From Nitrospirota bacterium (lineage in GTDB: Bacteria > Nitrospirota > UBA9217), in NCBI GenBank assembly GCA_963663225.1, contig OY760142.1, positions 195,913-259,912 of the forward strand: a stretch of DNA of 64,000 nt. The letters run 5' to 3'. The notes beneath the pieces were generated by a model, which searched no databases, was not told where the DNA came from, and saw only the letters and a program-made list of their open reading frames with translations. Numbering within the stretch: the first letter of the stretch is position 1; every line of letters begins with the position of its first letter. Positions 4,914 to 51,043 of the stretch are shown here, piece by piece. The position numbers and the translations under genes are program-made.

Positions 4914-4930
4914 CTGACGCTCCTTAACAG

Positions 4931-15116: not shown

Positions 15117-15127
15117 TTCATGGTATT

Positions 15128-20509: not shown

Positions 20510-22138
20510 CTATTTGTCCGACGTTCCGTAAACGCTGCTGAGCAGCGCTCTGTCTATTTTCTTGCTTTTATTTTTGGGAAGCTGTTCGAGTCTGACAAGA
20601 TGCTGCGGGATCATATATCGGGGCAGGCTCTTTTTCAGGTTGTGGTGAATCTCTTCATGGCAGTCCGCGGCCGCCTCGTAAACAAGTTTGAGTGACTTAA
20701 TTTCACCGTTTTCCCGGACCGGGATGACAACATTACCCGTCACTGAATCAACTTTTGAAACAACTCTCTCGATTTCCTGCAAATTGATTCGATATCCGAA
20801 AAATTTGATCTGACTGTCCTTGCGGCCATGGATGCAGTAGCCGACCCCGGGAATAAAAGACGCGACATCCCCGGTCCTGTAAAACGGCACCCCGTGCTCA
20901 TCCCTTCCAAAAACCTTGTTCGTTTTGTCAGGATCATTCCAATATCCGATAGACAAATGAGGAGAATGGACGATGAGCTCTCCTCGCTCTTCATTTTCCG
21001 GGAAGTCGGTTTTGTCAAGCGTGAAACGGATTCCCATGATCGGGAAACCGATGGGAACGGCGCCTCCGTCCTCGCCCTTGTAATCGTTCAGCGAGAAAAC
21101 AGCCATCAGTGACGATTCAGTAGATCCATAGCCGTTGATAAACTTTGCGTTGGGCAGCATGGCCATCACAGTTGCCAAAATATTCCGGTTGGCGGGTTCT
21201 CCGCCGAGCAAAACAGTTTTTAGCCCCTGAAGATGCTCCGGCTTGATCAGACCGCTGTTTACGAGAGCGTTCAGCGTCGAGGTGACCAGCAGCGTTCTGG
21301 TGACTTTGTACGTATATGTAAGGTCCAGAATGTCCTTCGGAAAAATTACTTCTTCTGGGTAAACAGCAAGTGTTCCACCTGAACACAGCGGTGGAAATAT
21401 GTCAGCGGTTGAGGCGGAGAATGCGGTTGCATTCAGCCCACTGGTCACGTCATCCACGTTATAACCCAGGGTATCGATCACCCACTGGACATTCTTGAAA
21501 ATATTGCCGTGGGGAATCATGACGCCTTTCGGCTCGCCGGTGGAGCCTGACGTGAAATAAATCATCGCCAGATCATTCGGCAAAAGGTCTACTTTTTGTG
21601 GATCATCCCGCCGCGCGCTTCCGAACGGCAATTTGACGAAATCGCGTTCTTCGCCATCGTCAAGCAGAACGGCCTGAAAACGCCCTGGAGATAGTTCCGC
21701 ACATTTTCTGAACAGGTCAGCTGAAAAGCGGTCGGCAAAAACGCGAAGCGGCGATATTTCAATCAATAAATCAGTCAGTCTGGCCGGCGGTGTTTTGGTG
21801 TCCAGAGGAACAACGACTCCTCCCGCTCTTATGATGCCGATCATGGCGGCATACAGATAGATTGACCTGTTCATCATGAGTGCGACACGATCGCCTTTTT
21901 TCAGACCACTCTCCTGCAGATACTGTGAAACATCGAGAGTCAGTTCGCGCAGTTCATGATAGGTCCATGCTTTGTCATACAGCCGTATCGCGGCTTTTGA
22001 TGCGTGCAAAGCAAACATCTTATCGAGCAGATCCATGATGGTAGAAACGGCTGATTGATTTTCTGCTTGTTTCTGGTTTATCGCGGTGTTTTTTTCCATG
22101 GGATTCTTTTTGACAATTGCATTGTCCTGAAGTTCCAT
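20510..22138 (-). CDS. adenylate-forming enzyme (AMP-dependent synthetase/ligase, acyl- or aminoacyl-activating), ligase 1
   Basis: Start placed at internal ATG (MELQDNAIV) 2 nt after the upstream stop. AMP-binding motifs YFTSGSTGEPKGV, GYGSTE and YRTGD are present. Confidence 0.8.
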   Translation of the reverse strand: MELQDNAIVKKNPMEKNTAINQKQAENQSAVSTIMDLLDKMFALHASKAAIRLYDKAWTYHELRELTLDVSQYLQESGLKKGDRVALMMNRSIYLYAAMIGIIRAGGVVVPLDTKTPPARLTDLLIEISPLRVFADRFSADLFRKCAELSPGRFQAVLLDDGEERDFVKLPFGSARRDDPQKVDLLPNDLAMIYFTSGSTGEPKGVMIPHGNIFKNVQWVIDTLGYNVDDVTSGLNATAFSASTADIFPPLCSGGTLAVYPEEVIFPKDILDLTYTYKVTRTLLVTSTLNALVNSGLIKPEHLQGLKTVLLGGEPANRNILATVMAMLPNAKFINGYGSTESSLMAVFSLNDYKGEDGGAVPIGFPIMGIRFTLDKTDFPENEERGELIVHSPHLSIGYWNDPDKTNKVFGRDEHGVPFYRTGDVASFIPGVGYCIHGRKDSQIKFFGYRINLQEIERVVSKVDSVTGNVVIPVRENGEIKSLKLVYEAAADCHEEIHHNLKKSLPRYMIPQHLVRLEQLPKNKSKKIDRALLSSVYGTSDK

Positions 22139-22142
22139 CGCT

Positions 22143-23354
22143 TTACACGACAATTTCAGCAGGCAGCGCGTGACTGAGAAAATGAAGCGGGCTTGCTGAA
22201 AAACCATATGCTCCTGAATTAAAGAAGAGGAGAACGTCGCCTTCCTCGATGTCGGCAGCCAGTTCAATATCAGTTGCCAATACATCGTCGGGAATGCAAA
22301 GGCTGCCGGTTATTGTGTACCTGATTTCAGCACCGGATTTTTCCTCTCCTGACAGTGTATCAATCTCGTAGTTACGCCGTATTACCTGTCCAATACCGCC
22401 GGCCGCCGCATAGTGTTGATGCATACCGCCGTCAACGACAAGAAATTCACGAGCGTAGCCCTTCTTGCGATACAACACGTGAACCGCGTAAAGCCCGCAT
22501 TCCGCCACCAGAAAGCGGCCTGGCTCGATGATGAACGTGGTGTTTCTGAGCGGAGCCGTAAGCTCTTCATCGGCAAAAAGTCTGGAGAGACCTTCCCTAA
22601 GCGCCGCAAGATCGAGCGGGGGTTTTTTCCCGAACATATCTATCCCCCAGCCGCCGCCAAAGTTTATTTTTTCGATGACAATTCCGTATTTGTTCGCAAT
22701 TTCGACGCTTTTTTCGAGAATAAAGCGATAATTGCTCAAAATCTTGTCTGATTCCTGATATTGTGAACCAAGATGCAGGTGCAGGCCCCGGAAGCGGAGC
22801 ATCTCCGGGTGGGATTTGATTACGGCAATGGCTTCCTCCAACTGGTCTTCAGGAATGCCGAACTGGGTATCTCCTCCCATCTTCATGGCTGAGGCCGCAG
22901 GACGCGTTTTGGGGTTTACCCTGATGCCCACGTTTCCGGCTTTCTTTTTTGCGCGGCAAAGTTTCGCTATCGTGTGTATTTCTGAAACGCTTTCAGCATT
23001 TATGCAGGAAACACCGGCATCGATCGCCTGCGATAATTCATCAAGGGTTTTTCCGGGACCGGTGAATTCTATGCTATCTGACGAAAATCCGGCAATCAGT
23101 GCCGCCGCGAGTTCCCCCCCCGAGGCCACGTCGGCACCCATGCCAAGTGCGTTCATTGTTCTTAAGATGTCATTATTGGGATTGGCCTTGAACGCATAAT
23201 GGATTTTGAAATGCTCTGGCAGACAATCTGACAGGTCACGATACTTTTTTTCAATGACCTTTTTAAAATAACAAAAAACCGGAAGCTTTCTCCCATCAAG
23301 AAAAGCGAGAAGTTCCGATTTTGGTATCAGCTTGTAAAATTCTTGCTTGTTCAT
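22143..23354 (-). CDS. PLP-dependent decarboxylase, Orn/DAP/Arg decarboxylase fold (diaminopimelate-decarboxylase-like)
   Basis: 403 aa ORF; HYAFKANPNNDILRTMNALGMGADVASGGEL and GLHLHLGSQ motifs. Confidence 0.8.
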   Translation of the reverse strand: MNKQEFYKLIPKSELLAFLDGRKLPVFCYFKKVIEKKYRDLSDCLPEHFKIHYAFKANPNNDILRTMNALGMGADVASGGELAAALIAGFSSDSIEFTGPGKTLDELSQAIDAGVSCINAESVSEIHTIAKLCRAKKKAGNVGIRVNPKTRPAASAMKMGGDTQFGIPEDQLEEAIAVIKSHPEMLRFRGLHLHLGSQYQESDKILSNYRFILEKSVEIANKYGIVIEKINFGGGWGIDMFGKKPPLDLAALREGLSRLFADEELTAPLRNTTFIIEPGRFLVAECGLYAVHVLYRKKGYAREFLVVDGGMHQHYAAAGGIGQVIRRNYEIDTLSGEEKSGAEIRYTITGSLCIPDDVLATDIELAADIEEGDVLLFFNSGAYGFSASPLHFLSHALPAEIVV

Positions 23355-24951
23355 ATTTGTTTTTTATTTCCGCGTATCGAACTTTGCCGTTTTCAGCCAG
23401 GGGCAGACTTTTCACAATGTTGATGTTGTCAGGCACCATATACGACGGCAGGCGTTCCTTCATATGTTTGATAAGGTCTTCTTTTTTTAGACCGTCACAG
23501 GAAATGATTTCCGCTATTATGTTGTGGCCTTTCCGATCATCCGGAATTCCCACTACCGCGCAGTGTGTCACTCCAGGATGTTCCAGAATGCAGCTTTCCA
23601 CTTCTTTGGGATAAATTCTGAATCCTGAGCTCTTGATCATTCCATCTTCACGTCCCAAAACATACAGAAAACCATCGCGGTCGATTTTTCCACGGTCACC
23701 GGTAAAAACCACCTTGCCCGCAGAGATCGTTGGCTTTAAACACGCGGGTATCTCTGCAAGTTTTTTCTGCGAACCAGCAACTTCATTGATATACCCAAGC
23801 ATGGTGCCAGCACCGTAATGAATTATTTCTCCTTCTTCGTCCGGGGATGCGATTTGGGTATTGTCTTTCAAAATAAAAATGCGAGTCCCCTTAACCGGAC
23901 GGCCTACCGATGTCATTTTACCATCATAGTCGTTCGCTTTTAATATGCCGCTTCTGAACGTTTCACTCTGCCCGTATGTTTTTATTATTTTCGTCCTCGG
24001 GAAATAATGCTTCAACTGTTCCAAATATTTTCGTGCGAGGTCTCCTCCGGAAACAGTGATGTATCGCAATGTTTTCGTATCTTCCGGGAAGCCGTCTTCT
24101 CGGGGAACAGAAAGCATATCGGCCCAGATGGTAGGCACTGCGGAAATCCCTGAGATATTAAATCGTTTGATTGCCGTTGCAATATCCCGTGGAAACCAGG
24201 AATTCAAAATAATAAGATGGGCGCCCGATAAAATGCTCGAAAAGAGCTGATTCAGTCCGACATCAAACGAAAAAGGCAGCAGGCTGAGCAAACAATCTTC
24301 CCTGTTAATTTCAAAATCTTCAATTTCTGTGGTGACTCTGACGTACAGATCGTCGCGATCGATTAACACACCCTTTTGCTCACCTGTCGATCCTGAAGTA
24401 AATAAGCAGTATCCGCGTTTTTTCTGGGAATTTGAGAATGGAGCATGTATCCGGGGATCGCCCATGCCGTCAATTGCTGCAGAAGCGCCGGATTGTTGAG
24501 ATTCCTGGACCCTGCGAGCCGGGATAAAATTCAAAAACTCGATTCCATCGCTACAAAGAGCAAACCGCATATTCGATGTAATAGCATCTTCAGACGACAT
24601 AATCTGCTTTACCGTGCTTCTGTTGAGAATGATAAATTTAGGTTTGGCAACTCTCGCCAATCTTATTACGTGAGGTGGCTTCAGCCTCGAATTCAATGAA
24701 CAGGCGGCGCCGCCGGCCAAAATGGCACCAAGAATGGTTACTGCTGCATCGATGGACTTGTTCATGTAACTAGCAACCAGATCATTCGGCTGCATCCCCT
24801 CTCTGGTAAAGAAGTCTGCAACTTCTTTTACTTTTCGAGCCAGCATGCCATAGGTCAGGGTTTGGAGTGTTCCCCCGGGCAAACAGTGGGAAATCGCAGC
24901 TTTGTCATTGTGTCGCGCAAATGCCTGCTCTATGCGTCGGGAAAGAATCAA
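23296..24951 (-). CDS. adenylate-forming enzyme (AMP-dependent synthetase/ligase), ligase 2
   Basis: 551 aa ORF; LFTSGSTGEQKGV, YGQSE and FTGDRG motifs. The first codon appears to be TTG, overlapping the stop of the upstream carrier-protein gene. Confidence 0.75.
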   Translation of the reverse strand: MILSRRIEQAFARHNDKAAISHCLPGGTLQTLTYGMLARKVKEVADFFTREGMQPNDLVASYMNKSIDAAVTILGAILAGGAACSLNSRLKPPHVIRLARVAKPKFIILNRSTVKQIMSSEDAITSNMRFALCSDGIEFLNFIPARRVQESQQSGASAAIDGMGDPRIHAPFSNSQKKRGYCLFTSGSTGEQKGVLIDRDDLYVRVTTEIEDFEINREDCLLSLLPFSFDVGLNQLFSSILSGAHLIILNSWFPRDIATAIKRFNISGISAVPTIWADMLSVPREDGFPEDTKTLRYITVSGGDLARKYLEQLKHYFPRTKIIKTYGQSETFRSGILKANDYDGKMTSVGRPVKGTRIFILKDNTQIASPDEEGEIIHYGAGTMLGYINEVAGSQKKLAEIPACLKPTISAGKVVFTGDRGKIDRDGFLYVLGREDGMIKSSGFRIYPKEVESCILEHPGVTHCAVVGIPDDRKGHNIIAEIISCDGLKKEDLIKHMKERLPSYMVPDNINIVKSLPLAENGKVRYAEIKNKYEQARILQADTKIGTSRFS

Positions 24952-25220
24952 GCTTCATCTCCCGCCAATTTCTTTTCAATAAAATACGATATTTTGCTTA
25001 TGGAGTCGAAATTGTCCAAAGAAAGTTCCGCCGGATAAAAAATAACGTCAAATTTCTCTGAAAAAGCCTCAATAATCTGGATTGCTCCGAGAGAGTCGAT
25101 TAGCCCGCTGTCGATCAGCGAATCCTCTTCACCAATACTAGTACCACTCCCATTGCCATCCTTTGCGGCAATCTCTGTTATTATTTGTTTAACCGCTCCT
25201 TTTATTTCTGCTAACTCCAT
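24948..25220 (-). CDS. acyl/peptidyl carrier protein (phosphopantetheine-binding)
   Basis: 90 aa ORF; carrier-protein serine motif GLIDSLGAIQIIE; GGGGGG RBS-like run 8-13 nt upstream of the ATG. Confidence 0.75.
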   Translation of the reverse strand: MELAEIKGAVKQIITEIAAKDGNGSGTSIGEEDSLIDSGLIDSLGAIQIIEAFSEKFDVIFYPAELSLDNFDSISKISYFIEKKLAGDEA

Positions 25221-25282
25221 GCTGAATGCCCCCCATTCAACGATTATTTTTATAATGATGCAGCAATGTATATTTTTTTGAC

Positions 25283-25993
25283 TTACCTTTGCAGGAGATC
25301 CCGCAAGAGGTTATCCAGTATCTCATACGCTTTTTGGTTTAAGTGTGTTCCGTCTCCACTGTTTAACTCATCACGAAGAGAACGCTCGCGGTCGCTTTTC
25401 CGTAATGCAGCCTCGAGGTCAATCAGCGTGATTTTCTCTTTTTTGGCGTAATCCCGAATCCAGTCATTGTAGGCCAAAATGCCTTCTATTTTGCCTTGCA
25501 CAGCCTCCGCGCGTGCGCGTGTAACAGGGACAACGGTCGCCAATATCACCTCTACGCGCGCGTCACGAATCCGCTTGACCCATTTTTGCACCAGTTCCTG
25601 CTGAAGGGCGATGTCGCCTGGAAAATAGGACGAACATTCTTTAATAACAATAATGTTCGGCAACACGGGTGACGGCCGGAAAAAACCCTTTATGTATGAC
25701 AGCGTAAAGTGAAACTTTCTTTTCGGACGCATCAGGATTTCATCGATTGCTTCCGTTTTATCAAACTGATACACCGCTATAAATTCGACGCTATGAGCGC
25801 GGTCACCCGTCCGCTGGGAATACTCTGCAAGTTTCCATGCCTTCCCGATGGAAGCCCCGACAAACATCACGTTTTTTTTGGAGGCATCCGCTTTACCCTG
25901 ATCCTGGATTTGCGTACAACCGGTCAGCACAAGCAAGCCTGCCGCTACAACGAAGAATATTTTTTTTACGGCCTTAATCATAGAGAACCTCAC
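25283..25993 (-). CDS. lipoprotein, putative SGNH/GDSL-type hydrolase
   Basis: 236 aa ORF; signal peptide with lipobox (LVLTGCTQ); C-terminal SGDGTHLNQKAYEIL resembles the SGNH block V (DGxH). Block I is not canonical. Confidence 0.5.
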   Translation of the reverse strand: MRFSMIKAVKKIFFVVAAGLLVLTGCTQIQDQGKADASKKNVMFVGASIGKAWKLAEYSQRTGDRAHSVEFIAVYQFDKTEAIDEILMRPKRKFHFTLSYIKGFFRPSPVLPNIIVIKECSSYFPGDIALQQELVQKWVKRIRDARVEVILATVVPVTRARAEAVQGKIEGILAYNDWIRDYAKKEKITLIDLEAALRKSDRERSLRDELNSGDGTHLNQKAYEILDNLLRDLLQR

Positions 25994-26615: not shown

Positions 26616-28700
26616 CTAGTTTACAGCGTGTGCGTGAGCACGGTCGCTTTCGTCTGCCGTTAAAATGAGATCAACCAGCTCTTTTCTGGTTTCCTCAAAA
26701 AAATCTGGAGTCCATTCCGATTCTCCATCCTGACGACAGACTGGTTCTCCGGATTTGCCTCGGATTCTTGAGAAAAAGTCTTCATAACGGGAAGTGTCTA
26801 TTCCTTTCCGCTTCAATACAGAAACCCGCTTTACAAGCTGATACAGCAGCTTATGGTCATTAATCCCCTCGCGGATTGCTTCCCATTTGAGCGTCGGCAC
26901 CGGACCGGACGGAGCTGGATAGGCCAGATACAGATCGTGCCCCGGTGTATCCGCCTTTTCCGGGAGGCCGCTTGCATTCTGCGTATTCTGAAATGTCCAG
27001 GATGACATTCCGTCAATGTTCTTCATCCACGTGTAATATCCGTACACATACCGTGCATAGGCGGGATTATCACATTGAGTAGTTATATTATTATTGTATA
27101 TCCAGTAACGTGAACCATTTTGATGGGCGGCCTGCATCTCGTGTTCATTCATTTCCGCAGAGCACAGATAATCAACCGGCGAGAACTGATCGTATCGAAG
27201 AGACGTAAGCATTGTTTTTCCACCCGACTCTTTTACGGCCTTAAGCAGCACGGGCGTTACAGCATATCGTTTCTTCTGTAAATCCTGCTGTGAATCATCC
27301 GGTTCATCGATAGGTAAAAATATGACCGGTGGGCAGTGATTTTCTTTTGCAAATTCCGTAACTGTTCTGACAAGATGACGTAGACGCTCCTCGTGTACTT
27401 TTTGATCAAAACCTTTTATGTTTCCCGGATGCTTCGGTTTGGCAGTTTGGATAAGATGTCCCATATACCAGATGACAGGCTTTGTAAATCCGGTGTCTCG
27501 TGCCGCGAGAAGAGCGGCGAAAACATCGTCCAGAACCAGGGTGCCGTCATCCCGGGTAAGAGCGACGAAGGGAGAATGGATTGAAAGCGTAGTCATGCCA
27601 TGCTCTCTATAGTTTTTCAAAACTGCTCGCGCCGAGCGCCGGAGTTCGTTCTTCTCTTTCTCATTCCATGGAAAGACAAGCTCCGTAAATTCGTACGTCA
27701 TGAGCATGAAATAGTCTTTATCCGGGATATCTTCTGTAATAATGGGGAGAACCATAATCTGGAGCGGTATTGTTTTACTCTTCCCATATTGCGGCAAAAC
27801 CGTTATTGTTCCCGTGTACTTGCCCGGCAGAACGGATTGATCAATTTTTGCTGTTAGCCAGAAACGGCAATGACCTCCTTTTTTAACGGAAGTCTTGCTC
27901 TTAGATCTGATCAGGGCAGGGAGCCGCCTGAATTCTCCTGGCGGGAGGCCTGTCGAATCCTCTACTGATTCGACAACCCCGATTTTAATTTTTTCTTTTG
28001 CGATGGTCCCCTGCGGGCCGTTCAAATCTTCAATTGCTAATTTTACCGTTCCGAGGTTCCTGCTAGAAAATAAGGAAATACTGATTGGAAGATATATATT
28101 TCGTGCCGTCCGTATTGATATTTCGCGAATGCTTTCCGCCGCTTCCGGCACCGTCCCCGGATATTCATAGAGTAGCGGAGACCGCAAAAAAACAACATAG
28201 CCGTCGGGGAAATCGACATCATTCGTTTTTATCTTCGCGGATTCATTCCGTAACGGCATCTCACGGTAGGCGATGGGAGTATGTATCCGTTCGGAATCGT
28301 TATAGTTCCTCAGCTCGGATTGCAATACAGACTGGGTAATAAAAACCGTGAAGATCCGTTGATCGTCTGCGGCCTCCAGCTGAATGTCGTATTTCCCTTC
28401 AGACAACGGGGATGGAAGATCGAAAAGAAGATTGCCGTTTTTCTCCCGTACCAGTATGGTCTGTGCCTGTGCAATAATATTGCCGTCCCGACAAAGAGTT
28501 CCTTTGACCTTCAGCCGGTCAATATGCTCCGCACCGCCAGAAACAGTAAACGCAGCATAAAGCGCTTTCTTCAGCTGAACTTGGTCAAGCACCGCTACTC
28601 TATCCCGAAGAATTAGAGAATCTATATGGATTGATTTTGTTTTGCAGGCTGGGCAAAGAACAGCAACGACAAGAGCAAATATCCCAAGAAGTCTTTTCAC
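26616..28700 (-). CDS. large secreted lipoprotein, function unknown (possibly a glycan-active enzyme)
   Basis: 694 aa ORF with signal peptide and lipobox (ALVVAVLCPACK); aromatic-rich; no motif I can assign. Confidence 0.55.
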   Translation of the reverse strand: MKRLLGIFALVVAVLCPACKTKSIHIDSLILRDRVAVLDQVQLKKALYAAFTVSGGAEHIDRLKVKGTLCRDGNIIAQAQTILVREKNGNLLFDLPSPLSEGKYDIQLEAADDQRIFTVFITQSVLQSELRNYNDSERIHTPIAYREMPLRNESAKIKTNDVDFPDGYVVFLRSPLLYEYPGTVPEAAESIREISIRTARNIYLPISISLFSSRNLGTVKLAIEDLNGPQGTIAKEKIKIGVVESVEDSTGLPPGEFRRLPALIRSKSKTSVKKGGHCRFWLTAKIDQSVLPGKYTGTITVLPQYGKSKTIPLQIMVLPIITEDIPDKDYFMLMTYEFTELVFPWNEKEKNELRRSARAVLKNYREHGMTTLSIHSPFVALTRDDGTLVLDDVFAALLAARDTGFTKPVIWYMGHLIQTAKPKHPGNIKGFDQKVHEERLRHLVRTVTEFAKENHCPPVIFLPIDEPDDSQQDLQKKRYAVTPVLLKAVKESGGKTMLTSLRYDQFSPVDYLCSAEMNEHEMQAAHQNGSRYWIYNNNITTQCDNPAYARYVYGYYTWMKNIDGMSSWTFQNTQNASGLPEKADTPGHDLYLAYPAPSGPVPTLKWEAIREGINDHKLLYQLVKRVSVLKRKGIDTSRYEDFFSRIRGKSGEPVCRQDGESEWTPDFFEETRKELVDLILTADESDRAHAHAVN

Positions 28701-29423: not shown

Positions 29424-30443
29424 CTATAATCCCAGTTTCTTTTTTGCGTTATTTATAAACGCCAACTCCGGATCGGAGTATATTTTTTGATACCCGTCTT
29501 CCCTTGTCATTACTCCGTCCCGGACCATGTTGGCGATTTCCCACACGTACGGGTGAAAACCATGGCGTTTCAGATGGACATCATTCCCGAAGGCATTGAG
29601 AAGACAGTTCGTGGAATTGCTGTCCGTGTCCTGAGGCGCCGTCCACCCGAATTCTCCGATCTGTTCAACCAGTGTTCCTTCGTGGTAAAACTCCCAGGCC
29701 ATGGGGTGAACGTTATAGGGGAACCGTTCCTGCATGGCGAAATGCTTCTCATTCAGAAAATATGATTCGATATCGGTTCCAGCCACTTCGCGCAGCGGAT
29801 TCAGGACCGCTTCCTGCGACATTTTGACGAGTGACGGATTCGTTCTCATAATCGAGGACTGCACCGGCGCCTGTCCAGGCGACCACCCGTATCCGATCAT
29901 GGGTATTTCCTGTTCAATGGCTGTTTTCAAACAGTATGACTTCACAATAGCCATACACGAGGTACAGATGGTACTTGCTCGTTCAAGCGTTTTTTTCGAA
30001 TATAGATCGCGGTCTGCTGCAACTGCAAAAATTTTTTTCAAAATGTCCCAGCGCGGTTTGAAAAAAATATGGTCCACATTCAACCGATCAGTCACCCGCC
30101 GAATGTTCGCCACGGCCGTCTCGGACACGAACCCGTTGTCCAGACTGACTGCCAGCACCCGCAGTCGGTATTTGTTTTTGAGCAGACTCATGGTGTAGGT
30201 CGAGTCTTTCCCGCCGCTATATGCCATCAAAATATCATAGGATCGGCGCCGGGCTGCCGGTCCTCCTGTCTGCTCCAGTAAATCCAGGAACTTCCGTTCA
30301 TATCTTTTTTTGTCTTCGGCGTGTTTTTTTTCCTTTCCGGCGGCCTGCTGGCAGTGCACGCAAACACCGGCTTCATCAAAACTGATGCCGGGAAAGGTTC
30401 CCGGCAATATGCAGCGCGTACAAACGGTTATATTAGATGACAT
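29424..30443 (-). CDS. N-acetyl sugar amidotransferase-like PP-loop ATPase (WbuX/PseA-like)
   Basis: Start at internal ATG (MSSNITVCTRC). N-terminal zinc-ribbon cysteines CTRC...CVHC followed by PP-loop motif YSGGKDS. Confidence 0.65.
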   Translation of the reverse strand: MSSNITVCTRCILPGTFPGISFDEAGVCVHCQQAAGKEKKHAEDKKRYERKFLDLLEQTGGPAARRRSYDILMAYSGGKDSTYTMSLLKNKYRLRVLAVSLDNGFVSETAVANIRRVTDRLNVDHIFFKPRWDILKKIFAVAADRDLYSKKTLERASTICTSCMAIVKSYCLKTAIEQEIPMIGYGWSPGQAPVQSSIMRTNPSLVKMSQEAVLNPLREVAGTDIESYFLNEKHFAMQERFPYNVHPMAWEFYHEGTLVEQIGEFGWTAPQDTDSNSTNCLLNAFGNDVHLKRHGFHPYVWEIANMVRDGVMTREDGYQKIYSDPELAFINNAKKKLGL

Positions 30444-31305
30444 GGTTTGCAGTCCTTTTCTTCGTGGCCCGTATTGCTCGTATTTTGTCTCCATCTTTGA
30501 AATACTCGATATTCTGATAACCGCCGCTTTTTTCGATTACTCGGGTGACCAGGGTCTCCTGCCGTTCACCGATTTCAAAGAGCAGGACTCCGTCCGGCTT
30601 CAGCAACGGCTGCGCATCTGTGATCAGCCGGCGGTAGATGTTAATCCCGTATGGCCCGCCGTCAAGCGCGACGAGCGGCTCATGGTCAATAATTTCGGCA
30701 GACAGTTTGCTGAGTGAGCTTGTCGGTATATAAGGCGGATTACATACGATGCAGTCTATATTTTCTTCGTATTCCACTCCTGCATAAGGCGCGAACAGGT
30801 CTCCGACCGCGAGAGAAATCCTGTCCTCGAGCTTGAACTTTGCCACGTTCCGGCGGGCTATCTCCACCGCGGCAGAACTGATGTCACTGGCCAGAACCGA
30901 TACCTGTTGTGCCTGCAGGGCAATGGATACTGCGATGTTTCCGCAGCCGGTTCCTACTTCGATCAGCGTGAGGGTCTTGCCGGCAGATTCTTTTTTACAC
31001 AGCGATTCAAGAACTGCGTTCACTAATACTCTGGTTTCATCGGTCGGAATCAGCGTATCCGGAGTGCAGAAAAACATGCGTCCCATAAAATGCGCTTTAC
31101 CGAGAATATACTCCCAGGGCATTCCTTTTTTCCTTTTTTGAATCGCAAGTTCAAGATTGATCTGTTCCCCCTCCGCATGCGTTAAGGTCGCTCCCCGCAG
31201 CGCGCCGCTCGACAGCAGGTCAAAAAGGCGCAAAGTCTCGTAAAGAGAGTTTTCCGTGCCGGCTTGTTCAATCAAAGTATAACTGCGTAAAAAATCATGG
31301 AACAT
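30433..31305 (-). CDS. HemK/PrmC-family SAM-dependent methyltransferase (NPPY-type)
   Basis: 290 aa ORF; SAM-binding LIEVGTGCGNIAV and catalytic CNPPYIP motif. Confidence 0.7.
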   Translation of the reverse strand: MFHDFLRSYTLIEQAGTENSLYETLRLFDLLSSGALRGATLTHAEGEQINLELAIQKRKKGMPWEYILGKAHFMGRMFFCTPDTLIPTDETRVLVNAVLESLCKKESAGKTLTLIEVGTGCGNIAVSIALQAQQVSVLASDISSAAVEIARRNVAKFKLEDRISLAVGDLFAPYAGVEYEENIDCIVCNPPYIPTSSLSKLSAEIIDHEPLVALDGGPYGINIYRRLITDAQPLLKPDGVLLFEIGERQETLVTRVIEKSGGYQNIEYFKDGDKIRAIRATKKRTANHVI

Positions 31306-31319
31306 GAATAATAACCTCG

Positions 31320-32870
31320 TTATTCGTTTACGGCCATCAAGAGTGTTTTGCTGATTTTACCCGTTGTAGTCTTTGGAAGAGTTTCCAGAATTTCTACATA
31401 CTTGGGAACCATAAAGTTTTCGAGATGGTCCGCGCAATATTTCAAAATATCCTTTTCCGTCAGGCGCGCACCGTTCTCCAGCGCGACATACGCTTTAATT
31501 GCCTGGCCGAAAATTTCATCCGGAACACCAACGACTGCCGCCTCCACAATGCCGTCGAGCGCATACAGTACATTTTCCACTTCCTTCGGACTGACTTTTT
31601 CACCCTTGCATTTTATGATATCGTCTTTTCTTGCAACAAAATAAAAATATCCGTCCTCGTCCGTTCTGAAAAGATCACCGGTGTATAAGAGCCGCTCTCC
31701 TGGATACGTGCCCGGCTTCAGACGTTTTGCCGTTTCTTCGGGCAGATCCCAATATCCAAGCATTACATTGGAACCTCTCACCACCAATTCTCCCACCTCT
31801 CCGGGTGGCATCCGTCGGCCTTTTTCATCGACGATGAAAATTTCTTCATTCGGCATGCCTTTTCCCACGGAAGTGGGTTTTTTCTCAAGATCTGCCGGAG
31901 GCAGATAGGAAACCCGTTTGCATTCCGTCAAGCCGTACATCGAGTAGAGCTTTGCCTGGGGGAAAAGCTCACGCAATCTTTTTATATGGCTGACCGGCAG
32001 TGCCGCAGCGGTATTGGTAATGTACCGCAGAGTACTGAAGTCATATTTCTGAATATCTTTCATTTGCAGCAGAAGAGAAAAAATCGTCGGAACGCCGGGA
32101 AAACCCGTAACCTTTTCTTCAGTCATTACTTTAAGGACTTGAGCAGGGTAGGCAAAGGATTTTTCCAGCACGACGGTAGCGCCGACTCTGAATCCCATAA
32201 GAATCTGGTAAAGGCCGTAATCGAAGGTGAGCGGCAGCACATTGATAATGATATCCTGATCGGTATTGTCAAGATATGTCGTTATTGAATGCGCAGCCGA
32301 AACCATGTTCAGGTGAGAGAGCATGACCCCTTTCGGATTTCCCGTTGATCCAGAAGTATAAACGATGGAAGCCAGATCGAGATCAATGCATGTTTTTTTT
32401 ATGGAGCCGTTTATCGCATTGTTGCACGTAATTTTCTCAAAGGACAGAGGGGAGGACGCCAGACCGCTCCATATAACCGTTTGGAGATGGGGGGAAGTCG
32501 TGGACGCCACGACGTCCTTCCGGGCGTTCTGGGTAATCATTACCTTTGCCCTGCTGTTGTTCAGAATATACTCAAGTTTTCCGGACTTGGTCGTGTGATT
32601 GATCATCATGAATGCCGCGTTTGCCTTGAGTATTCCGAAAAGCGCAATGACTGCTTCGACCGAGTTGTCCATGAATACGGCGACCCGGTCGCCGCGCTCA
32701 ACTCCGGACGCCGCAAGAGCATGGGCAAGACGTTCTGAACGGGAATCTATATCAGCATACGTAAAACGCTTTCCCTGATAAATCAGCGCTGTTTTTTCCG
32801 GAAATTTTTGTGCGCTGGTTTCGAGAAAATGATTGACAAGTGTATGTCTGAACATGGCGGTGTCCATCAT
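31320..32870 (-). CDS. adenylate-forming enzyme (AMP-dependent synthetase/ligase), ligase 3
   Basis: 516 aa ORF; YTSGSTGNPKGV, YGLTE and YTGDL motifs. Confidence 0.8.
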   Translation of the reverse strand: MMDTAMFRHTLVNHFLETSAQKFPEKTALIYQGKRFTYADIDSRSERLAHALAASGVERGDRVAVFMDNSVEAVIALFGILKANAAFMMINHTTKSGKLEYILNNSRAKVMITQNARKDVVASTTSPHLQTVIWSGLASSPLSFEKITCNNAINGSIKKTCIDLDLASIVYTSGSTGNPKGVMLSHLNMVSAAHSITTYLDNTDQDIIINVLPLTFDYGLYQILMGFRVGATVVLEKSFAYPAQVLKVMTEEKVTGFPGVPTIFSLLLQMKDIQKYDFSTLRYITNTAAALPVSHIKRLRELFPQAKLYSMYGLTECKRVSYLPPADLEKKPTSVGKGMPNEEIFIVDEKGRRMPPGEVGELVVRGSNVMLGYWDLPEETAKRLKPGTYPGERLLYTGDLFRTDEDGYFYFVARKDDIIKCKGEKVSPKEVENVLYALDGIVEAAVVGVPDEIFGQAIKAYVALENGARLTEKDILKYCADHLENFMVPKYVEILETLPKTTTGKISKTLLMAVNE

Positions 32871-33142
32871 CAGGCGTTTTGGACCGCAACCGGTCCCGTA
32901 CTTGCTTTTTTGGCGACAAAATCGGCGAGCTTGCCGATGGAATCAAAGTTATCGGGTATTATTTCATCATCGGTTACGGCGAACCCGAATTTCTCTTCGA
33001 CAAAGGACACTAGTTCGAGCACGCCGGTTGAGTCGATAATGCCTTTTTCCAGAAAAGAGACCTCGTCGGTCAGTGTATGGTCATCCTGACCATATAAAAA
33101 GTTTTCTATGACAAAGGCTCTGATTACATCTTTCTGTTGCAT
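32870..33142 (-). CDS. acyl/peptidyl carrier protein (phosphopantetheine-binding), second copy
   Basis: Start at internal ATG (MQQKDVIRAF) with GGGGGAG RBS 7 nt upstream; carrier serine motif GIIDSTGVLELVSF. The longer ORF-track start at 33232 lacks this support. Confidence 0.7.
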   Translation of the reverse strand: MQQKDVIRAFVIENFLYGQDDHTLTDEVSFLEKGIIDSTGVLELVSFVEEKFGFAVTDDEIIPDNFDSIGKLADFVAKKASTGPVAVQNA

Positions 33143-33251
33143 AGTGGTGCTCCCCCTTTTGCTGGTTAATCGTATCTCTGTACACGTATATGTATATGTT
33201 AAAATGCCCGATAGAGCTGAGTTGATATGCATCCAGACGATCGCGGGATAA

Positions 33252-35192
33252 TCAACGAATGCTCCGTTTTTTTACCTGAAATTGTTTTATAAACTGGTCA
33301 TACAGCAGCATCGTAGAAACAATACCGACAATGGCCATATTGTCCTTGAATCCCAAAACAGGGCTTTGTCTGCATTTTTTTACCAGGGTGGACACTGACC
33401 TGGGGTTGAAAAAACCGACTTCCTGCAGTTGCTTTTCTGAAAGGATTTCCTCAATATAGTCGGGTGACTCCTTTGCAAAAAAGCTTTTCGCGTCAGGGGC
33501 CATATAGGGCTGCTTAGTTCTCTTCACCACCGCCGGAGGCAGTAAGTTCCTCATGCTTTTCTTGAGAATATACTTTTCCGTAAGGGCGCACATTCTGATT
33601 GTGGGGGGCAGTTTGCAGGAAAACTCCACAAGCCGGTGATCAAGAAACGGGAACCTTCCTTCTATCGAATGCGCCATGGCAACCCGGTCACCCTGCGATG
33701 AGAGCAGATAGCCAGAAAGCAAAGTCTTGATTTCCATGTACTGCGCCTGTGAAATGTCGTCAAATGCACTGAAATCATCCGACAATAAATCCGTCAAATC
33801 ATACAGATTGTTATACCCGCGCAGCGTGTCTTTCAGTGCATCGGAAAAGAATGATTTTATTTTCGCAGTCGTGTTCCAGCGCGGAACATGAGAAAAGTAT
33901 TGGGGAGGATATTTGTCCGCATCCGTGTTAAAGAATGCTTCCGCGTATTTGACTGACCGCACCGGAGAATGCGCGAGATATGGATACAGACGTTTTAGAA
34001 TCAGCTGCCTGAAACGGGAATCAGGATTTTTTTCCAAAAATCTTCGTACTTTGGTTTCCTTAAAAATATCATAACCGGCTAATATTTCATCCGATCCTTC
34101 CCCCGTCAAAACAACCTTATATCCGCTTTCCCTGACCAGTTTTGACAAAAGAAAAAGTGGCGCCGGTGCAGTGCGCACAATGGGCTTCTCCGTATGCCAG
34201 ACAACGTCCGGGAACACATTTCCGATATCGGCATAGGAACACTTGATATCGCTGTGGTCGGTCCCCAGATAGTCGATCATCTGCTTCTGATAGGAGCTTT
34301 CATCATAAACTTCATCGGCAAAGGTGACTGAAAATGTCCTTAAGGGCGTATCAGTGTATTTTTTTATAAGCGTCGTAATGACTGAAGAGTCTATTCCTCC
34401 GCTGAGGTATGCGCCCACCGGGACGTCAGCCCTCAGTTGGAGCCTTGTAGAGTCGATCAAAAGACTGCGCAATTCTTCGGCATACTGAGTTTCCGTTTTT
34501 GAACATGCATCGGGAGTAAAATCAGGATCCCAATACCGTTTCTGGACCAGTACACCGCGGGTAATGGTAATAGAATGTCCGGCGGGAAGTTCGAAAATAT
34601 CTTTGAAGGCAGTCCTTGGCGGAATGGTCATCCAGAAGGTGAATATCTGGTCCAGAGCGCACGGATCTATTTCCCTCTTTACGCGGGAATCGGCAAACAG
34701 GGATTTTATCTCCGATGCAAACAGCAGCGAATCTTCGATCCGGGTATAGAAAAGCGGACGAATACCCAGCCGGTCTCGCGCTATGAAGAAGACATCACCG
34801 GTTTTGTCCCAGATGGCAAATGCAAACTGGCCGTTCAGATAACCAAGGCATTCCGTACCGTATTCTTCATAAAGATGTACAATTACCTCGGTATCGGATT
34901 TTGTATAAAAAACGTGGCCTTTCTTCTGGAGAAATTCCCGCAGTTCGATGTAATTGAATATTTCACCGTTGAAAATGATTGCAATGGTTCTGTCTTCATT
35001 GTAAATCGGCTGGTTTCCACCCGCAAGGTCGATAATACTCAACCTGGCGTGCGCCAGTCCCGCCCGCAGATCACGATGGAATCCGTATCCATCCGGACCG
35101 CGATGCTGCACCATCTCAATCATGTCCTTCAGGACATCCAGGGATATTTCCCTGTCGCGATGGAGGTTAAAAATGCCTGCTATGCCGCACAT
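33252..35192 (-). CDS. asparagine synthase (glutamine-hydrolysing)-family amidotransferase
   Basis: 646 aa ORF; N-terminal nucleophile MCGIAGIF; synthetase-domain PP-loop SGGIDSS. Confidence 0.85.
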   Translation of the reverse strand: MCGIAGIFNLHRDREISLDVLKDMIEMVQHRGPDGYGFHRDLRAGLAHARLSIIDLAGGNQPIYNEDRTIAIIFNGEIFNYIELREFLQKKGHVFYTKSDTEVIVHLYEEYGTECLGYLNGQFAFAIWDKTGDVFFIARDRLGIRPLFYTRIEDSLLFASEIKSLFADSRVKREIDPCALDQIFTFWMTIPPRTAFKDIFELPAGHSITITRGVLVQKRYWDPDFTPDACSKTETQYAEELRSLLIDSTRLQLRADVPVGAYLSGGIDSSVITTLIKKYTDTPLRTFSVTFADEVYDESSYQKQMIDYLGTDHSDIKCSYADIGNVFPDVVWHTEKPIVRTAPAPLFLLSKLVRESGYKVVLTGEGSDEILAGYDIFKETKVRRFLEKNPDSRFRQLILKRLYPYLAHSPVRSVKYAEAFFNTDADKYPPQYFSHVPRWNTTAKIKSFFSDALKDTLRGYNNLYDLTDLLSDDFSAFDDISQAQYMEIKTLLSGYLLSSQGDRVAMAHSIEGRFPFLDHRLVEFSCKLPPTIRMCALTEKYILKKSMRNLLPPAVVKRTKQPYMAPDAKSFFAKESPDYIEEILSEKQLQEVGFFNPRSVSTLVKKCRQSPVLGFKDNMAIVGIVSTMLLYDQFIKQFQVKKRSIR

Positions 35193-36145
35193 CGCTTCCC
35201 TGAATGGTCGCGGTACCAGTTGATTGTTTCAACAAGACCGCGGTTGATGGGATATTGGGGGTTATATGCAAGTTGTTTGCGCGCGAGATCCACATCAGCG
35301 AGGGAATCCCTTACATCACCGGAACGTTTCGGACGGTAGATGATTTCCGAGCTTGACGATGTCTCCTTCTGAATCAATTGAGCAAGATCAAGGACGGTTA
35401 TCCGCTGACCATATGCGATGTTAAAAACTCTGCCCGGTATCTGGTCAATGGTCAAAGCGTTCAAATTTGCGGAAACGACATCATCGATATAGCTGAAGTC
35501 CCGCGTTTGCAGGCCGTCGCCTTCTATCGGAAGAGGTTCGTTCTGGAGCGCTTTTGTAATAAATTTCGGGATAACCGCCGCATAGTCTGAGGCAGGGTTT
35601 TGTCTGCGGCCATACACGTTAAAATATCTCAGGCCGATAATCTGCATGCCGTAAAGATTGGAAAAAACCGAGGCGAGCATCTCCTTCGAAGCTTTAGAAA
35701 CAGCATACGGCGACTTCGGGTTGAGCGGCATGCTCTCACGCTTCGGTAATTCCGGCGTATCACCGTAGACGGAGGAAGAACTGGCGAACACTATCCGTTT
35801 GCAGCCGTACTCCGCAGCGATATGAAACAGATTTGTCGTACCGGTGATATTTACATCAATGGTCTTTATCGGATCTTTGACGCTTTTGGAGACGCTCGGT
35901 ACCGCCGCCTGATGGGATATCAGCGAAATATTTTCGGACTTTATTATGGATCTCAACAGTCCGCCGTCAAGAATGCTTCCATGAATAAATTTCATATTGT
36001 CGCTTTCCTGTATATCGAGGACATTCTCCATTTTCCCCGTGCTCAAATCATCCAGGACAACGACACGGTATCCGCGCAACAGCAATGCCTCGGCTATGTT
36101 GCTCCCGATAAATCCTGCTCCGCCCGTTACTAATACTGACTCCAT
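35180..36145 (-). CDS. NAD-dependent epimerase/dehydratase (extended SDR; UDP-sugar 4-epimerase-like, WbpP/TviC type)
   Basis: 321 aa ORF; Rossmann motif VTGGAGFIGSNI and catalytic YxxxK (PYAVSKASK). Confidence 0.8.
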   Translation of the reverse strand: MESVLVTGGAGFIGSNIAEALLLRGYRVVVLDDLSTGKMENVLDIQESDNMKFIHGSILDGGLLRSIIKSENISLISHQAAVPSVSKSVKDPIKTIDVNITGTTNLFHIAAEYGCKRIVFASSSSVYGDTPELPKRESMPLNPKSPYAVSKASKEMLASVFSNLYGMQIIGLRYFNVYGRRQNPASDYAAVIPKFITKALQNEPLPIEGDGLQTRDFSYIDDVVSANLNALTIDQIPGRVFNIAYGQRITVLDLAQLIQKETSSSSEIIYRPKRSGDVRDSLADVDLARKQLAYNPQYPINRGLVETINWYRDHSGKRCAA

Positions 36146-41113: not shown

Positions 41114-41767
41114 TCAACACAATGATTCTACTTCCTGGGCTGCCACTCGTATGGAAACGCTTCTGCCGAGCAGTTCTACAGTAACCTGGAACAGATATTC
41201 GTTTTCTTTCCGGATCAGAATGCCTTCTGCATTTTTGAGCGGGCCGTTTTTAATCCGGATCCGGGTCCCCTGTTTCAAGTGCGGATAGACATCCAGCTCT
41301 TTGCCGCTCTCGACGAGAAGCCGTAAGGAATCTATCTCTTCGGGAGCAACCGGTGTCGGCTTGCCGGGTTCCAGCGAGATGAAAGTCACAACCCCTCGTG
41401 TCCTCAGCACGTCTAGGAACGCCTCAGGTCCGGGACTAATTTTCACGAAAAGGTATCCTGGAAACAGTGGATATTTGACGATCTTTTTTCTGTCTTTCCA
41501 CTGGCTGACCCGCTTTGCAGCAGGCAGAAATGCTTCCAGATTTTTTTCAGTCAGTTCATCCAGAACAACGAATTCATGCCGCGATTTTACATGAACGGCA
41601 TACCAGCATACCGTCTGCTCTGCCGGCGATTGTCGACTAAAATGAGATTCCGAAAACACTATAGACCGTGCCAGTTCACATTGATTCATGAGTTCCACGT
41701 TTCCTTTTATTTCCGTATTCCCGATTTTCCAGTCCATGCAGGCGACAGGAAAGGACTTACCGATCAC
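41114..41767 (-). CDS. NusG-paralog transcription antiterminator (UpxY/LoaP/RfaH-like)
   Basis: NGN-domain motif CWYAVHVKSRHEFVV...YPLFPGYLFVK and C-terminal KOW-like GTRIRIKNGPLKNAEGIL. True start uncertain; candidate Met codons at 41767, 41737 and 41689. Confidence 0.7.
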   Translation of the reverse strand: MIGKSFPVACMDWKIGNTEIKGNVELMNQCELARSIVFSESHFSRQSPAEQTVCWYAVHVKSRHEFVVLDELTEKNLEAFLPAAKRVSQWKDRKKIVKYPLFPGYLFVKISPGPEAFLDVLRTRGVVTFISLEPGKPTPVAPEEIDSLRLLVESGKELDVYPHLKQGTRIRIKNGPLKNAEGILIRKENEYLFQVTVELLGRSVSIRVAAQEVESLC

Positions 41768-49249: not shown

Positions 49250-49260
49250 GGTTTTCAGCC

Positions 49261-51030: not shown

Positions 51031-51043
51031 GGTTAACCTCGCC

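Follow-up and report, generated by a model that had tools for sequence, protein, structure and literature searches.

We lean towards reading two overlapping genes of a Nitrospirota bacterium, one for a PP-loop protein and one for a HemK-type methyltransferase, as exopolysaccharide (EPS) tailoring enzymes. By analogy with characterized systems, the cassette to which the PP-loop gene belongs would add a nitrogen-rich group and the methyltransferase would N-methylate it. Across many uncultured bacteria, both are accompanied by the same carrier-protein genes, and this recurrence points to an undescribed EPS decoration.

Gene boundaries and operon setting

The two open reading frames lie on the minus strand of the window, as we call the whole 64-kb stretch of DNA analyzed. 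They span 29424..30494 (356 aa, the longest ORF) and 30433..31305 (290 aa). That the genes are genuine is shown by public data, which contain exact copies of the 290-aa methyltransferase and of a 339-aa PP-loop protein, along with 903 and 3250 homologues, respectively, at E ≤ 0.001. The start of the PP-loop gene is most likely ATG 30443, which gives a protein of 339 aa (29424..30443). This version is present in the protein collection and the 356-aa version is absent, and the start lies at a position common to 24 of 24 aligned homologues. An AAGGA Shine–Dalgarno-like sequence is also found about 9 nt 5′ of ATG 30443, with none before ATG 30494. The stop codon of the methyltransferase gene is at 30433..30435. 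Because the PP-loop gene starts at 30443, the two genes overlap by 11 nt (ATGTCATCTAA) and not by 62 nt; the overlap given in the preliminary description is real.

The pair belongs to a run of about 40 co-directional genes that extends from 42688 to beyond the left end of the window. Its placement inside an EPS operon, as first described, is borne out and can be sharpened to an XrtA/PEP-CTERM-type locus, in which five markers exceed their NCBIfam cutoffs. These are the XrtA-associated ATPase (TIGR03015, 399.9 bits against a cutoff of 324.5), the chain-length determinant (TIGR03007, 398.5 against 278.9), the tyrosine kinase (TIGR03018, 234.2 against 230.7), the exporter (TIGR03027, 212.5 against 180) and the outer-membrane protein (TIGR03016, 141.7 against 90.9). 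Downstream, the operon continues with genes for glycosyltransferases, Wzx, Wzy, deacetylases and FemAB-like proteins.

The PP-loop gene is part of a four-gene cassette

Three further minus-strand genes accompany the pair. The first, at 31320..32870, encodes an AMP-forming acyl/aminoacyl ligase (Pfam AMP-binding, 329 bits), and the second, at 32870..33232, encodes an acyl carrier protein (ACP) recognized by Pfam PP-binding and the NCBIfam ACP models. Since the ACP homologues are about 85 aa long (82–87 aa), the true start of the ACP is probably internal to this ORF. The third, at 33252..35192, encodes an AsnB-type glutamine-dependent amidotransferase (Pfam Asn_synthase and GATase_7). Haft et al. 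in 2006 reportedly defined a PEP-CTERM/exosortase A gene set consisting of the TIGR03098 ligase, an ACP, the TIGR03108 amidotransferase and the TIGR03099 decarboxylase. The locus studied here is of the same kind, with AsnB-like, ACP and AMP-ligase genes beside XrtA-system markers. However, its ligase reaches 492.4 bits on TIGR03098 (cutoff 592.4) and its AsnB reaches 484.0 bits on TIGR03108 (cutoff 816.9); since both score under the cutoffs, they represent distinct subfamilies. To our knowledge, neither a PP-loop gene like those of the N-acetyl sugar amidotransferases (NASATs) nor a HemK paralogue is part of the described exosortase A-associated set.

Gene content was compared across 54 related loci, each with 3 kb or more of sequence upstream of the PP-loop gene. 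An ACP gene and a ligase gene each accompany it in 52 of the 54 loci, and an AsnB gene in 45. The PP-loop gene thus takes a constant fourth place in an uncurated cassette (AsnB-like, ACP, AMP-ligase, PP-loop), which occurs in XrtA/PEP-CTERM EPS operons not only of Nitrospirota but also of Desulfobulbia and further phyla. The HemK-type gene is found in only five of the 54 loci and is absent from the sister Nitrospirota cassettes; its presence in 5/54 fits an optional decoration. In the literature on exosortase/PEP-CTERM systems with HemK, PP-loop or accessory genes, we found no functional study of the cassette.

The PP-loop protein has the NASAT fold with additional invariant residues

The published description of NASATs defines them by two motifs, a SGGXDS PP-loop and a zinc-binding tetracysteine, CXXCXn[GN]XCXXC (PMC10607449), and the PP-loop protein matches both. 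In its translation, the ATP-binding motif reads SGGKDS (30201..30218, minus strand) and is invariant in an alignment of 25 sequences. The N-terminal zinc-ribbon motif is CxxC-x16-CxxC (CTRC-x14-GVCVHC; 30351..30422, minus strand), and C8, C11, C28 and C31 together with G26 are invariant in the same alignment. The AF2 model of the protein (pLDDT 84.5) has the Legionella NASAT 8WEX as its best PDB match, over the full length with a TMq of 0.71 for 349–364 columns, whereas other PP-loop folds reach at most 0.45. As for the known members (WbuX, WbpG, PtmG/Cj1324 and LpNASAT; TIGR03573), the gene sits in a surface-polysaccharide locus.

The preliminary description had noted a resemblance to enzymes that convert acetamido to acetamidino groups. 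Fold and motifs bear this out, but membership in the canonical WbuX type is rejected. The protein is 19–20% identical to 8WEX, and on TIGR03573 (WbuX) it scores 151.2 bits, under the NCBIfam cutoff of 203.2. A canonical NASAT with HisH/HisF-like partners has been described (PMC11340318). In contrast, a BLASTP search with E. coli HisH and HisF (E ≤ 1e-3) retrieved no such partners (WbuY/WbuZ) from the window and 170 related loci (1.8 Mb), and the PP-loop protein is instead tied to AsnB, ACP and AMP-ligase. With these constant neighbours, the substrate may therefore not be a plain N-acetyl sugar.

Another difference from known NASATs is a set of additional invariant residues. The alignment of 25 sequences reveals a subfamily-specific CxxC (TICTSC; C160 and C163) at 29955..29966 on the minus strand, the position being derived from the 30443 start, as well as invariant C171 and C280 and an invariant GWSPGQAP loop. 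The CxxC adjoins the sole low-confidence loop of the AF2 model (residues 152–157). This CxxC may be a second metal site. The N-terminal tetracysteine is the sole cysteine motif mentioned in the published NASAT description (PMC10607449). The extra cysteines and the GWSPGQAP loop go beyond that description, and the chemistry of the PP-loop protein may therefore differ.

These four cysteines outside the zinc ribbon raise another reading, in which the protein would catalyse a different adenylation-dependent reaction, either a TtuA/LarE-like thio-substitution with a cysteine-bound metal or Fe–S cluster or a QueC-like amide-to-nitrile dehydration. The [4Fe-4S] enzymes TtuA, NcsA and LarE are indeed the next structural neighbours of the model after NASAT, and the score below the WbuX cutoff and the missing HisH/HisF-like ammonia supplier in the window and related loci also agree with it. 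Nevertheless, the fold matches NASAT far better, which leaves a TtuA-like Fe–S sulfurtransferase as a minor rival only. The AsnB-type glutaminase co-encoded in 45 of the 54 loci is a possible source of ammonia, and neither a sulfur-carrier nor a cysteine desulfurase gene was found among the annotated ORFs of the operon. We therefore consider such a reaction rather improbable and retain the amidine- or amide-forming assignment.

The PP-loop protein is labelled 'hypothetical protein' at NCBI, and 107 of the 120 homologues listed are without a precomputed Pfam domain. We found no specific NCBIfam model for the subfamily. The family comprises more than 3000 clusters, is carried by 539 species-representative genomes and retains 60–80% identity across phyla. 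A large and well conserved family is thus still 'hypothetical', although its gene almost always occurs with the AsnB/ACP/ligase genes long known as companions of exosortases.

The methyltransferase is probably a PrmC paralogue apart from the release-factor enzymes

The 290-aa protein (30433..31305, minus strand) had been called HemK/PrmC-like, and this call is confirmed by 203 bits on NCBIfam hemK_fam, the catalytic motif and the fold. The NPPY motif, CNPPYIPT in the family form, is encoded at 30730..30741 (minus strand); N189, P190 and P191 are invariant in the alignment and Y192 is nearly so. SAM-binding motif I reads GTGCGN (30937..30954, minus strand; position derived from the 31305 start). 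This is a signature of the clade, whereas canonical PrmC reads GTGSGA. The AF2 model (pLDDT 87.6) was superposed by Foldseek on E. coli PrmC (2B3T_A and 1T43) over the full length, with a TMq of 0.71 for 287–291 columns. The model thus keeps the two-domain fold of PrmC, also represented by T. maritima 1NV8, with an N-terminal helical domain and a Rossmann methyltransferase domain. Sequence identity to E. coli PrmC is 30% over the catalytic domain.

The simplest role for such a protein would be that of the housekeeping PrmC for RF1/RF2, merely encoded in an EPS operon. It passes the cutoff of the PrmC equivalog TIGR03534, though narrowly (208.0 against 199.1 bits) and over model positions 29–246 only, NCBI names its homologues PrmC, and neither a PrfA homologue nor another prmC occurs within the 64-kb window. 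However, several lines of evidence oppose this role. First, the IPRP(D/E)TE motif, which contacts RF1 at the methylation site and is the strongest discriminator of true PrmC (PMC3098086), is lost. Its diverged counterpart in the window copy is IPTDETR (31030..31050, minus strand), with TDETR in place of the RPDTE of E. coli PrmC, and the clade varies at this site (TEETS, REETE, RPETG and others). Two prfA-linked controls read RPETE (L168) and IPRQDTE (L171). Second, Pfam PrmC_N (PF17827) does not match the protein at E ≤ 0.01 and is recorded for none of the 120 homologues listed, whereas E. coli PrmC, used as a control, reaches 78 bits; the hhalign alignment to PrmC likewise begins only at about residue 47. 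Third, prfA is beside none of the 77 relatives listed at 44% identity or more, a group for which at least 77 loci were retrieved. It is adjacent in two of the 13 loci of lower identity, which are the two controls at 35–38% identity. Fourth, members of the clade share 50–65% identity across phyla, against 35–38% to these controls. Finally, a neighbour-joining tree separates all cassette-linked methyltransferases from the prfA-linked copies. All six of the six database homologues sampled, from several phyla, lie inside AsnB/ACP/ligase modules of EPS loci with shuffled gene order, and the gene is missing from the sister Nitrospirota cassettes. The housekeeping role is rejected as very unlikely, and the evidence that the protein is a non-housekeeping PrmC paralogue with a new role is strong but indirect. 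The earlier remark that such an enzyme is unusual in a polysaccharide operon needs qualification, as the clade recurs in operons of this kind.

The evidence says that most PrmC-like proteins in polysaccharide loci are not release-factor methyltransferases and that databases mislabel them: the clade passes the curated cutoff and is named 'peptide chain release factor N(5)-glutamine methyltransferase'. On this evidence, curators should revisit the TIGR03534 equivalog cutoff or consider an exception model.

Because the methyltransferase passes the PrmC equivalog cutoff and keeps the PrmC docking domain, a protein substrate is conceivable. It could act as a protein glutamine methyltransferase for the EPS/exosortase machinery or for PEP-CTERM cargo, with the N-terminal domain docking the protein. 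The predicted N-terminal helical bundle carries conserved residues of the clade's own (E23, L25, R26 and G34), and protein glutamine methylation is the activity of the characterized bacterial HemK members, PrmC and PrmB (PMC3098086). The neighbouring PP-loop family offers a candidate site in its invariant G–Q loop (GWSPGQAP), but this loop is equally invariant in the approximately 90% of cassettes without the methyltransferase, which is also found in modules without a PP-loop protein. Moreover, we searched the AsnB, ACP, ligase and PP-loop alignments for columns in which a residue is present in at least 75% of cassettes with the HemK-type gene and at most 15% of those without it, and no column separates the two groups. 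A protein substrate therefore appears doubtful, and we prefer an amide or amidine nitrogen supplied by the cassette.

Proposed function of the pair

The substrates and products named in the following scheme are assigned by analogy. The predicted steps of the cassette are acyl loading, amidation, amidine formation and N-methylation. The PP-loop enzyme, an ATP pyrophosphatase, would adenylate a sugar-linked acyl group at the carbonyl oxygen of its amide (or carboxylate), and a nitrogen nucleophile would then displace AMP to give an amidine or amide. The four genes together would equip an amino sugar or uronic acid of the polymer with an unusual nitrogen-rich substituent, acyl or aminoacyl in nature. 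Directly upstream of the AsnB-type gene, at 35180..36145 on the minus strand, lies a gene for a TviC-like SDR of the UDP-GlcNAcA 4-epimerase family. It scores 239 bits on NCBIfam NF011728, under the cutoff of that model, and the evidence is therefore at the family level only; as far as this sequence match goes, it points to uronic acids as available amidation substrates.

For the methyltransferase, the preliminary description had put forward a machinery protein or an amide/amidino nitrogen as possible targets. With SAM as methyl donor, the HemK-type enzyme most likely acts through its NPPY site on an amide or amidine nitrogen installed by the cassette, which it would N-methylate. Strict NPPY sites are chiefly associated with planar amide-type or amidine nitrogens, as in PrmC and the N6-adenine methyltransferases. 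Our first choice of target would be the carboxamide formed by the AsnB-like enzyme, with chemistry as in glutamine N5-methylation. The alternative would be the amidine formed by the PP-loop enzyme, for which there is a parallel. PtmG (a NASAT) and PtmH of Campylobacter (Cj1324 and Cj1325), and likewise ORF28 and ORF8 of Legionella pneumophila, lead to 5-(N-methylacetimidoyl) legionaminic acid, which carries the methyl group on the amidine nitrogen (PMC3766260, PMC13306086). These pairs share with ours a NASAT-type PP-loop enzyme and an N-methyltransferase in one surface-glycan locus. However, nonulosonic-acid genes are absent from the locus studied here, and the HemK-type gene more often adjoins AsnB than the PP-loop gene. 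The methyltransferase family of PtmH/Cj1325 and Legionella ORF8 is not stated in the literature that we found.

N-methylation of small nitrogen groups is also known among HemK-like enzymes, which are able to act on sugar amines and carbamoyl (amide) nitrogens. AprI N-methylates an aminosugar, and AprI and GenN of the aminoglycoside pathways have NSPT at the site where PrmC has NPPY (PMC9338882). The carbamoyl N-methyltransferase Asc-Orf2 (PDB 9L4Q) is among the structural neighbours of the window methyltransferase (TMq 0.54), and phmmer matches the latter to an apramycin biosynthesis N-methyltransferase chain (PDB 23lq) at an E value of about 5e-6. These enzymes are nevertheless distant, and their structural alignments (approximately 210 columns) include no PrmC-type N-terminal domain.

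The amine methylation by AprI (PMC9338882) also agrees with a different target, another nitrogen on a carrier-bound intermediate (an amine, heteroaromatic or enamine nitrogen), to which AsnB and the PP-loop protein would be unrelated. Among the 15 HemK-type loci that extend for 4 kb or more to either side, ACP and AMP-ligase are the most general companions (12 of 15 each), although AsnB follows with 11 of 15 and these counts are too small to separate them. Four loci (L102, L138, L157 and L095) combine the HemK-type gene with ACP, acyl-CoA dehydrogenase and ligase only. L102, L138 and L157 have neither AsnB nor the NASAT-like protein, so an amide or amidine from those enzymes cannot be the target there. 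In cassettes of the window type, in contrast, AsnB is the commonest gene immediately upstream of the HemK-type gene (21 loci among those listed), and the strict NPPY site favours a planar nitrogen. We regard this other target as possible but unlikely, and an amide or amidine nitrogen as the preferred substrate. One further copy of the methyltransferase (L170) stands apart, with no partner gene closer than 10 kb.

For the question of exosortase accessory genes and attachment, which has stood since 2006, the cassette provides a concrete set of four or five enzymes together with expected mass signatures. In a joint reading that we offer as speculative and give only a slim chance, the AsnB, ACP, ligase and NASAT-like cassette, with its optional PrmC-derived methyltransferase, would make the exosortase acceptor itself, a sugar modified with an amino acid or amidine. 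XrtA would then attach PEP-CTERM proteins to this sugar, much as the type IX secretion system uses an aminoacyl 'linking sugar', and the methyltransferase would cap or tune the acceptor nucleophile. If true, this would add a third substrate class to the PrmC family, a glycan-borne amide or amidine. No exosortase (EpsH/XrtA) gene is present among the annotated ORFs of the window, past the left end of which the operon continues, and homologous cassettes elsewhere adjoin Exosortase_EpsH genes. In addition to the cassette, the window contains another ACP gene and another ligase gene, in a set with a PLP-decarboxylase gene.

Gene models and operon context

Both genes named in the preliminary description are reproduced by a listing of open reading frames on the minus strand, at 29424..30494 (356 aa, the PP-loop gene) and 30433..31305 (290 aa, the methyltransferase gene). 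The motifs attributed to them were also read in the translations, with SGGKDS at 30201..30218, the zinc ribbon as CxxC...CxxC at 30351..30422 and NPPY at 30730..30741. Both frames are clearly real genes, since identical proteins exist in public collections and homologues are numerous (3250 for the PP-loop protein and 903 for the methyltransferase, E ≤ 0.001). The protein on record for the PP-loop gene is 339 aa long and starts at ATG 30443; this form has an entry in a collection of 15 billion proteins, where the 356-aa form has none. The equivalent start is used by 24 of 24 aligned homologues, and AAGGA lies about 9 nt 5′ of the ATG. The genes do overlap as described, but with the start moved to ATG 30443 the PP-loop gene shares only 11 nt with the methyltransferase gene up to its stop codon. 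An 11-nt overlap is a common layout for translational coupling.

The two genes belong to one series of some 40 genes, all in the same direction, which extends from 42688 to beyond position 1 of the window; the closest genome match is an uncultured Nitrospiraceae MAG (97% identity). At the operon head, five XrtA/PEP-CTERM markers (ATPase, exporter, chain-length determinant, tyrosine kinase and outer-membrane protein) score over their NCBIfam cutoffs. No exosortase gene is found among the annotated ORFs of the window, and the operon runs past its left end. The head is followed by genes for a TviC-like UDP-GlcNAcA epimerase-family protein, an AsnB-type amidotransferase, an ACP, an AMP-ligase, the HemK-type methyltransferase, the PP-loop protein, acetyltransferases and a GH123-like protein. 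Farther downstream are a second ACP/ligase/PLP-decarboxylase set, three FemAB-like genes, glycosyltransferases, deacetylases, Wzx, Wzy, a formyltransferase, DegT and a priming transferase. The second carrier module [20510..25310 (-)] encodes a small ACP [24951..25310 (-)], a TIGR03098-like ligase [23296..24951 (-)], a PLP-dependent Orn/DAP-type decarboxylase [22143..23354 (-)] and a third AMP-binding enzyme [20510..22285 (-)]. Its make-up resembles that of the ligase/ACP/decarboxylase trio known from exosortase A systems, and the operon therefore holds two distinct acyl-loading systems.

The PP-loop protein and its cassette

Pfam returns only weak PP-loop superfamily matches for the PP-loop protein, and its best NCBIfam model, WbuX (TIGR03573), scores 151 bits, under the 203-bit cutoff. 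With a profile of 25 homologues, the best solved relative is the Legionella N-acetyl sugar amidotransferase (NASAT) 8WEX. Superposed on 8WEX along its entire length, the AlphaFold model (pLDDT 84.5) reaches a TMq of 0.71, compared with at most 0.45 for TtuA, NcsA, LarE and other folds. The motifs that define NASATs in the structural paper, SGGXDS and CXXCXn[GN]XCXXC (PMC10607449), are both present and invariant in the PP-loop alignment. Because of this superposition and both motifs, the predicted structure is assigned to the NASAT fold, but as a non-canonical member for three reasons. First, the identity to 8WEX is only 19–20%. Second, four cysteines (C160, C163, C171 and C280) and a GWSPGQAP loop (residues 186–193) are invariant additions of the subfamily, neither of which is named in the NASAT description of PMC10607449. 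These additions may serve as a second metal site or as a loop for the substrate. Third, a BLASTP search of the window and of related loci totaling 1.8 Mb finds no HisH/HisF-like ammonia-delivery partner, whereas the canonical WbuX locus carries such partners (PMC11340318). The proposed likeness to enzymes that convert acetamido to acetamidino groups is thus upheld by the fold and the motifs, but not by the WbuX cutoff or the HisH/HisF-like partners. A non-amidine-forming reaction of the PP-loop protein, for example thio-substitution or nitrile formation, is rather improbable.

Homologues of the PP-loop protein share 60–80% identity across Nitrospirota, Thermodesulfobacteriota, Omnitrophota, Zixibacteria and others. 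NCBI labels the family 'hypothetical protein', and most members among the homologues listed have no Pfam domain. The comparison of gene neighborhoods covered 54 loci from species-representative genomes, each with 3 kb or more upstream of the PP-loop gene. ACP and AMP-ligase genes are each present in 52 of these and an AsnB-like gene in 45; the prevailing order is AsnB, ACP, ligase, PP-loop, a synteny unlike that of WbuX. The subfamily is a large, unnamed NASAT-fold group tied to exosortase-associated AsnB/ACP/ligase genes, and is new in this respect. Work on the type IX 'linking sugar' had speculated that PEP-CTERM FemAB-like, deacetylase and AsnB genes make an amino-acid-modified sugar; the defined cassette newly opens this old question of PEP-CTERM accessory genes to experiment. 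At two loci (L133:6914-7960 and L085:11539-12510), the place of the NASAT-like protein in the cassette is taken by a PP-loop enzyme of the NadE-like type (NAD_synthase family), an arrangement that looks like a functional swap of two ATP-dependent amidating enzymes.

Separation of the methyltransferase from PrmC

The methyltransferase scores 203 bits on hemK_fam (NCBIfam). The whole length of its model (pLDDT 87.6) aligns with E. coli PrmC at a TMq of 0.71, which means that the N-terminal helical domain has been kept. It belongs unambiguously to the HemK family, as first described. A housekeeping PrmC would agree with the narrow pass on the PrmC equivalog TIGR03534 (208 bits against a cutoff of 199.1, over model positions 29–246 only); however, five independent lines of evidence, strong though indirect, speak against a release-factor enzyme, and the housekeeping role is highly improbable. 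First, in context, each of the six database homologues checked belongs to an AsnB/ACP/ligase module, and in five cases the PP-loop gene is there too; they include copies named from Nitrospiraceae, Omnitrophica and Elusimicrobiota, with shuffled gene order. No prfA adjoins any of these six, none is nearby at any of the 77 metagenomic and genomic loci fetched at 44% identity or more, and BLASTP finds none in the 64-kb window. Two matches at 35–38% identity do adjoin prfA and serve as internal controls. Second, a neighbor-joining tree places all cassette-linked copies on one side and the E. coli and prfA-linked copies on the other. Third, IPRPDTE, the strongest discriminator of true PrmC in a SIMBAL study, which contacts RF1 where it is methylated (PMC3098086), is replaced by IPTDETR in the window, and the clade is variable at these positions. 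Fourth, Pfam PrmC_N matches neither the methyltransferase nor any of the 120 homologues listed, whereas the E. coli PrmC control scores 78 bits, and the profile alignment to E. coli PrmC begins only at residue 47. Lastly, the distribution is patchy: of the 54 informative PP-loop cassettes, only 5 have the gene (9 if all 80 fetched are counted), and those of sister Nitrospirota do without it; it therefore acts as an optional accessory.

This appears to be a PrmC-derived clade that has moved from translation to polysaccharide tailoring, which is new. Five listed homologues (P0041, P0056, P0070, P0076 and P0102) carry the NCBI name 'peptide chain release factor N(5)-glutamine methyltransferase'; the context of P0041 and P0056 was checked, and both lie in EPS cassettes. 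Such over-annotation as PrmC is probably systematic, since the clade scores barely over the TIGR03534 cutoff, and a polysaccharide clade would thereby be misnamed throughout.

Likely substrate of the methyltransferase

Directly upstream of the methyltransferase gene, AsnB is commonest (21 loci) and the ligase comes second (12); the downstream gene is most often a DUF3473-type deacetylase (12 loci) or the PP-loop gene (7). For 15 loci, the sequence extends 4 kb or more to each side; ACP and the ligase each occur in 12 of them, AsnB in 11 and the PP-loop gene in 9. Relatives also occur together with the NadE-like enzyme at L133 and L085. Four further modules combine an ACP, an acyl-CoA-dehydrogenase-family protein, a different AMP-ligase and a methyltransferase relative (40–58% identity) without AsnB or a NASAT-like protein (L102:9383-13928, L138:6077-10122, L157:6724-10777 and L095:9953-15346); the clade therefore follows carrier-protein modules generally. 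Methylation of a different nitrogen on an ACP-bound intermediate is plausible but unlikely.

The NPPY site of the HemK/PrmC family methylates planar amide-type nitrogens. The cassette would supply these from two sources, a carboxamide from AsnB and an amidine from the NASAT-like enzyme. With moderate confidence, we favor a class of reaction in which the PP-loop protein would be an adenylating amidotransferase-type enzyme acting on an acyl or amide substituent from AsnB, ACP and ligase, and the HemK paralogue an optional N-methyltransferase of the resulting amide or amidine nitrogen. The carboxamide is slightly preferred over the amidine as its target. Amidine N-methylation occurs alongside NASAT in PtmG/PtmH and Legionella ORF28/ORF8 (PMC3766260, PMC13306086), and HemK-superfamily AprI carries out sugar N-methylation (PMC9338882). 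A carbamoyl N-methyltransferase of related fold is among the structural neighbors of the methyltransferase. A new protein-glutamine substrate seems quite unlikely: comparing cassettes with and without the methyltransferase, we found no partner-protein residues that track its presence, which argues weakly against a co-encoded protein. The likelihoods given for the rival readings address two separate questions, one for each protein, and are not meant to add up to one. Since both proteins belong to known superfamilies with known kinds of chemistry, the findings are not new in category.

Other features of the region

A UpxY-family NusG-like antiterminator [41114..41767 (-)] lies near the operon head, directly after the XrtA-associated ATPase gene; UpxY-type antiterminators are known chiefly from Bacteroides capsule loci. 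Three tandem FemAB-like (Acetyltransf_6) paralogues [13989..17414 (-)] suggest, by analogy with VimA-type enzymes discussed for the type IX secretion linking sugar, stepwise aminoacyl or peptide attachment to the glycan. A formyltransferase-domain protein adjoining a DegT-type aminotransferase [3690..5710 (-)] suggests an N-formylated amino sugar in the polymer. Amid the biosynthetic genes, a 694-aa protein [26616..28700 (-)] is weakly similar to the GH123 N-terminal domain and is matched only in the two closest relatives (L005 and L045); a glycoside-hydrolase-like gene is odd within an EPS synthesis operon. Finally, a 1183-aa fusion of GltD-like, NuoG-like and formate-dehydrogenase-like regions is followed by NuoF-like and NuoE-like genes [45698..51601 (-)]; these have no relation to the EPS operon and may encode an electron-bifurcating or NAD(P)H-linked oxidoreductase complex.
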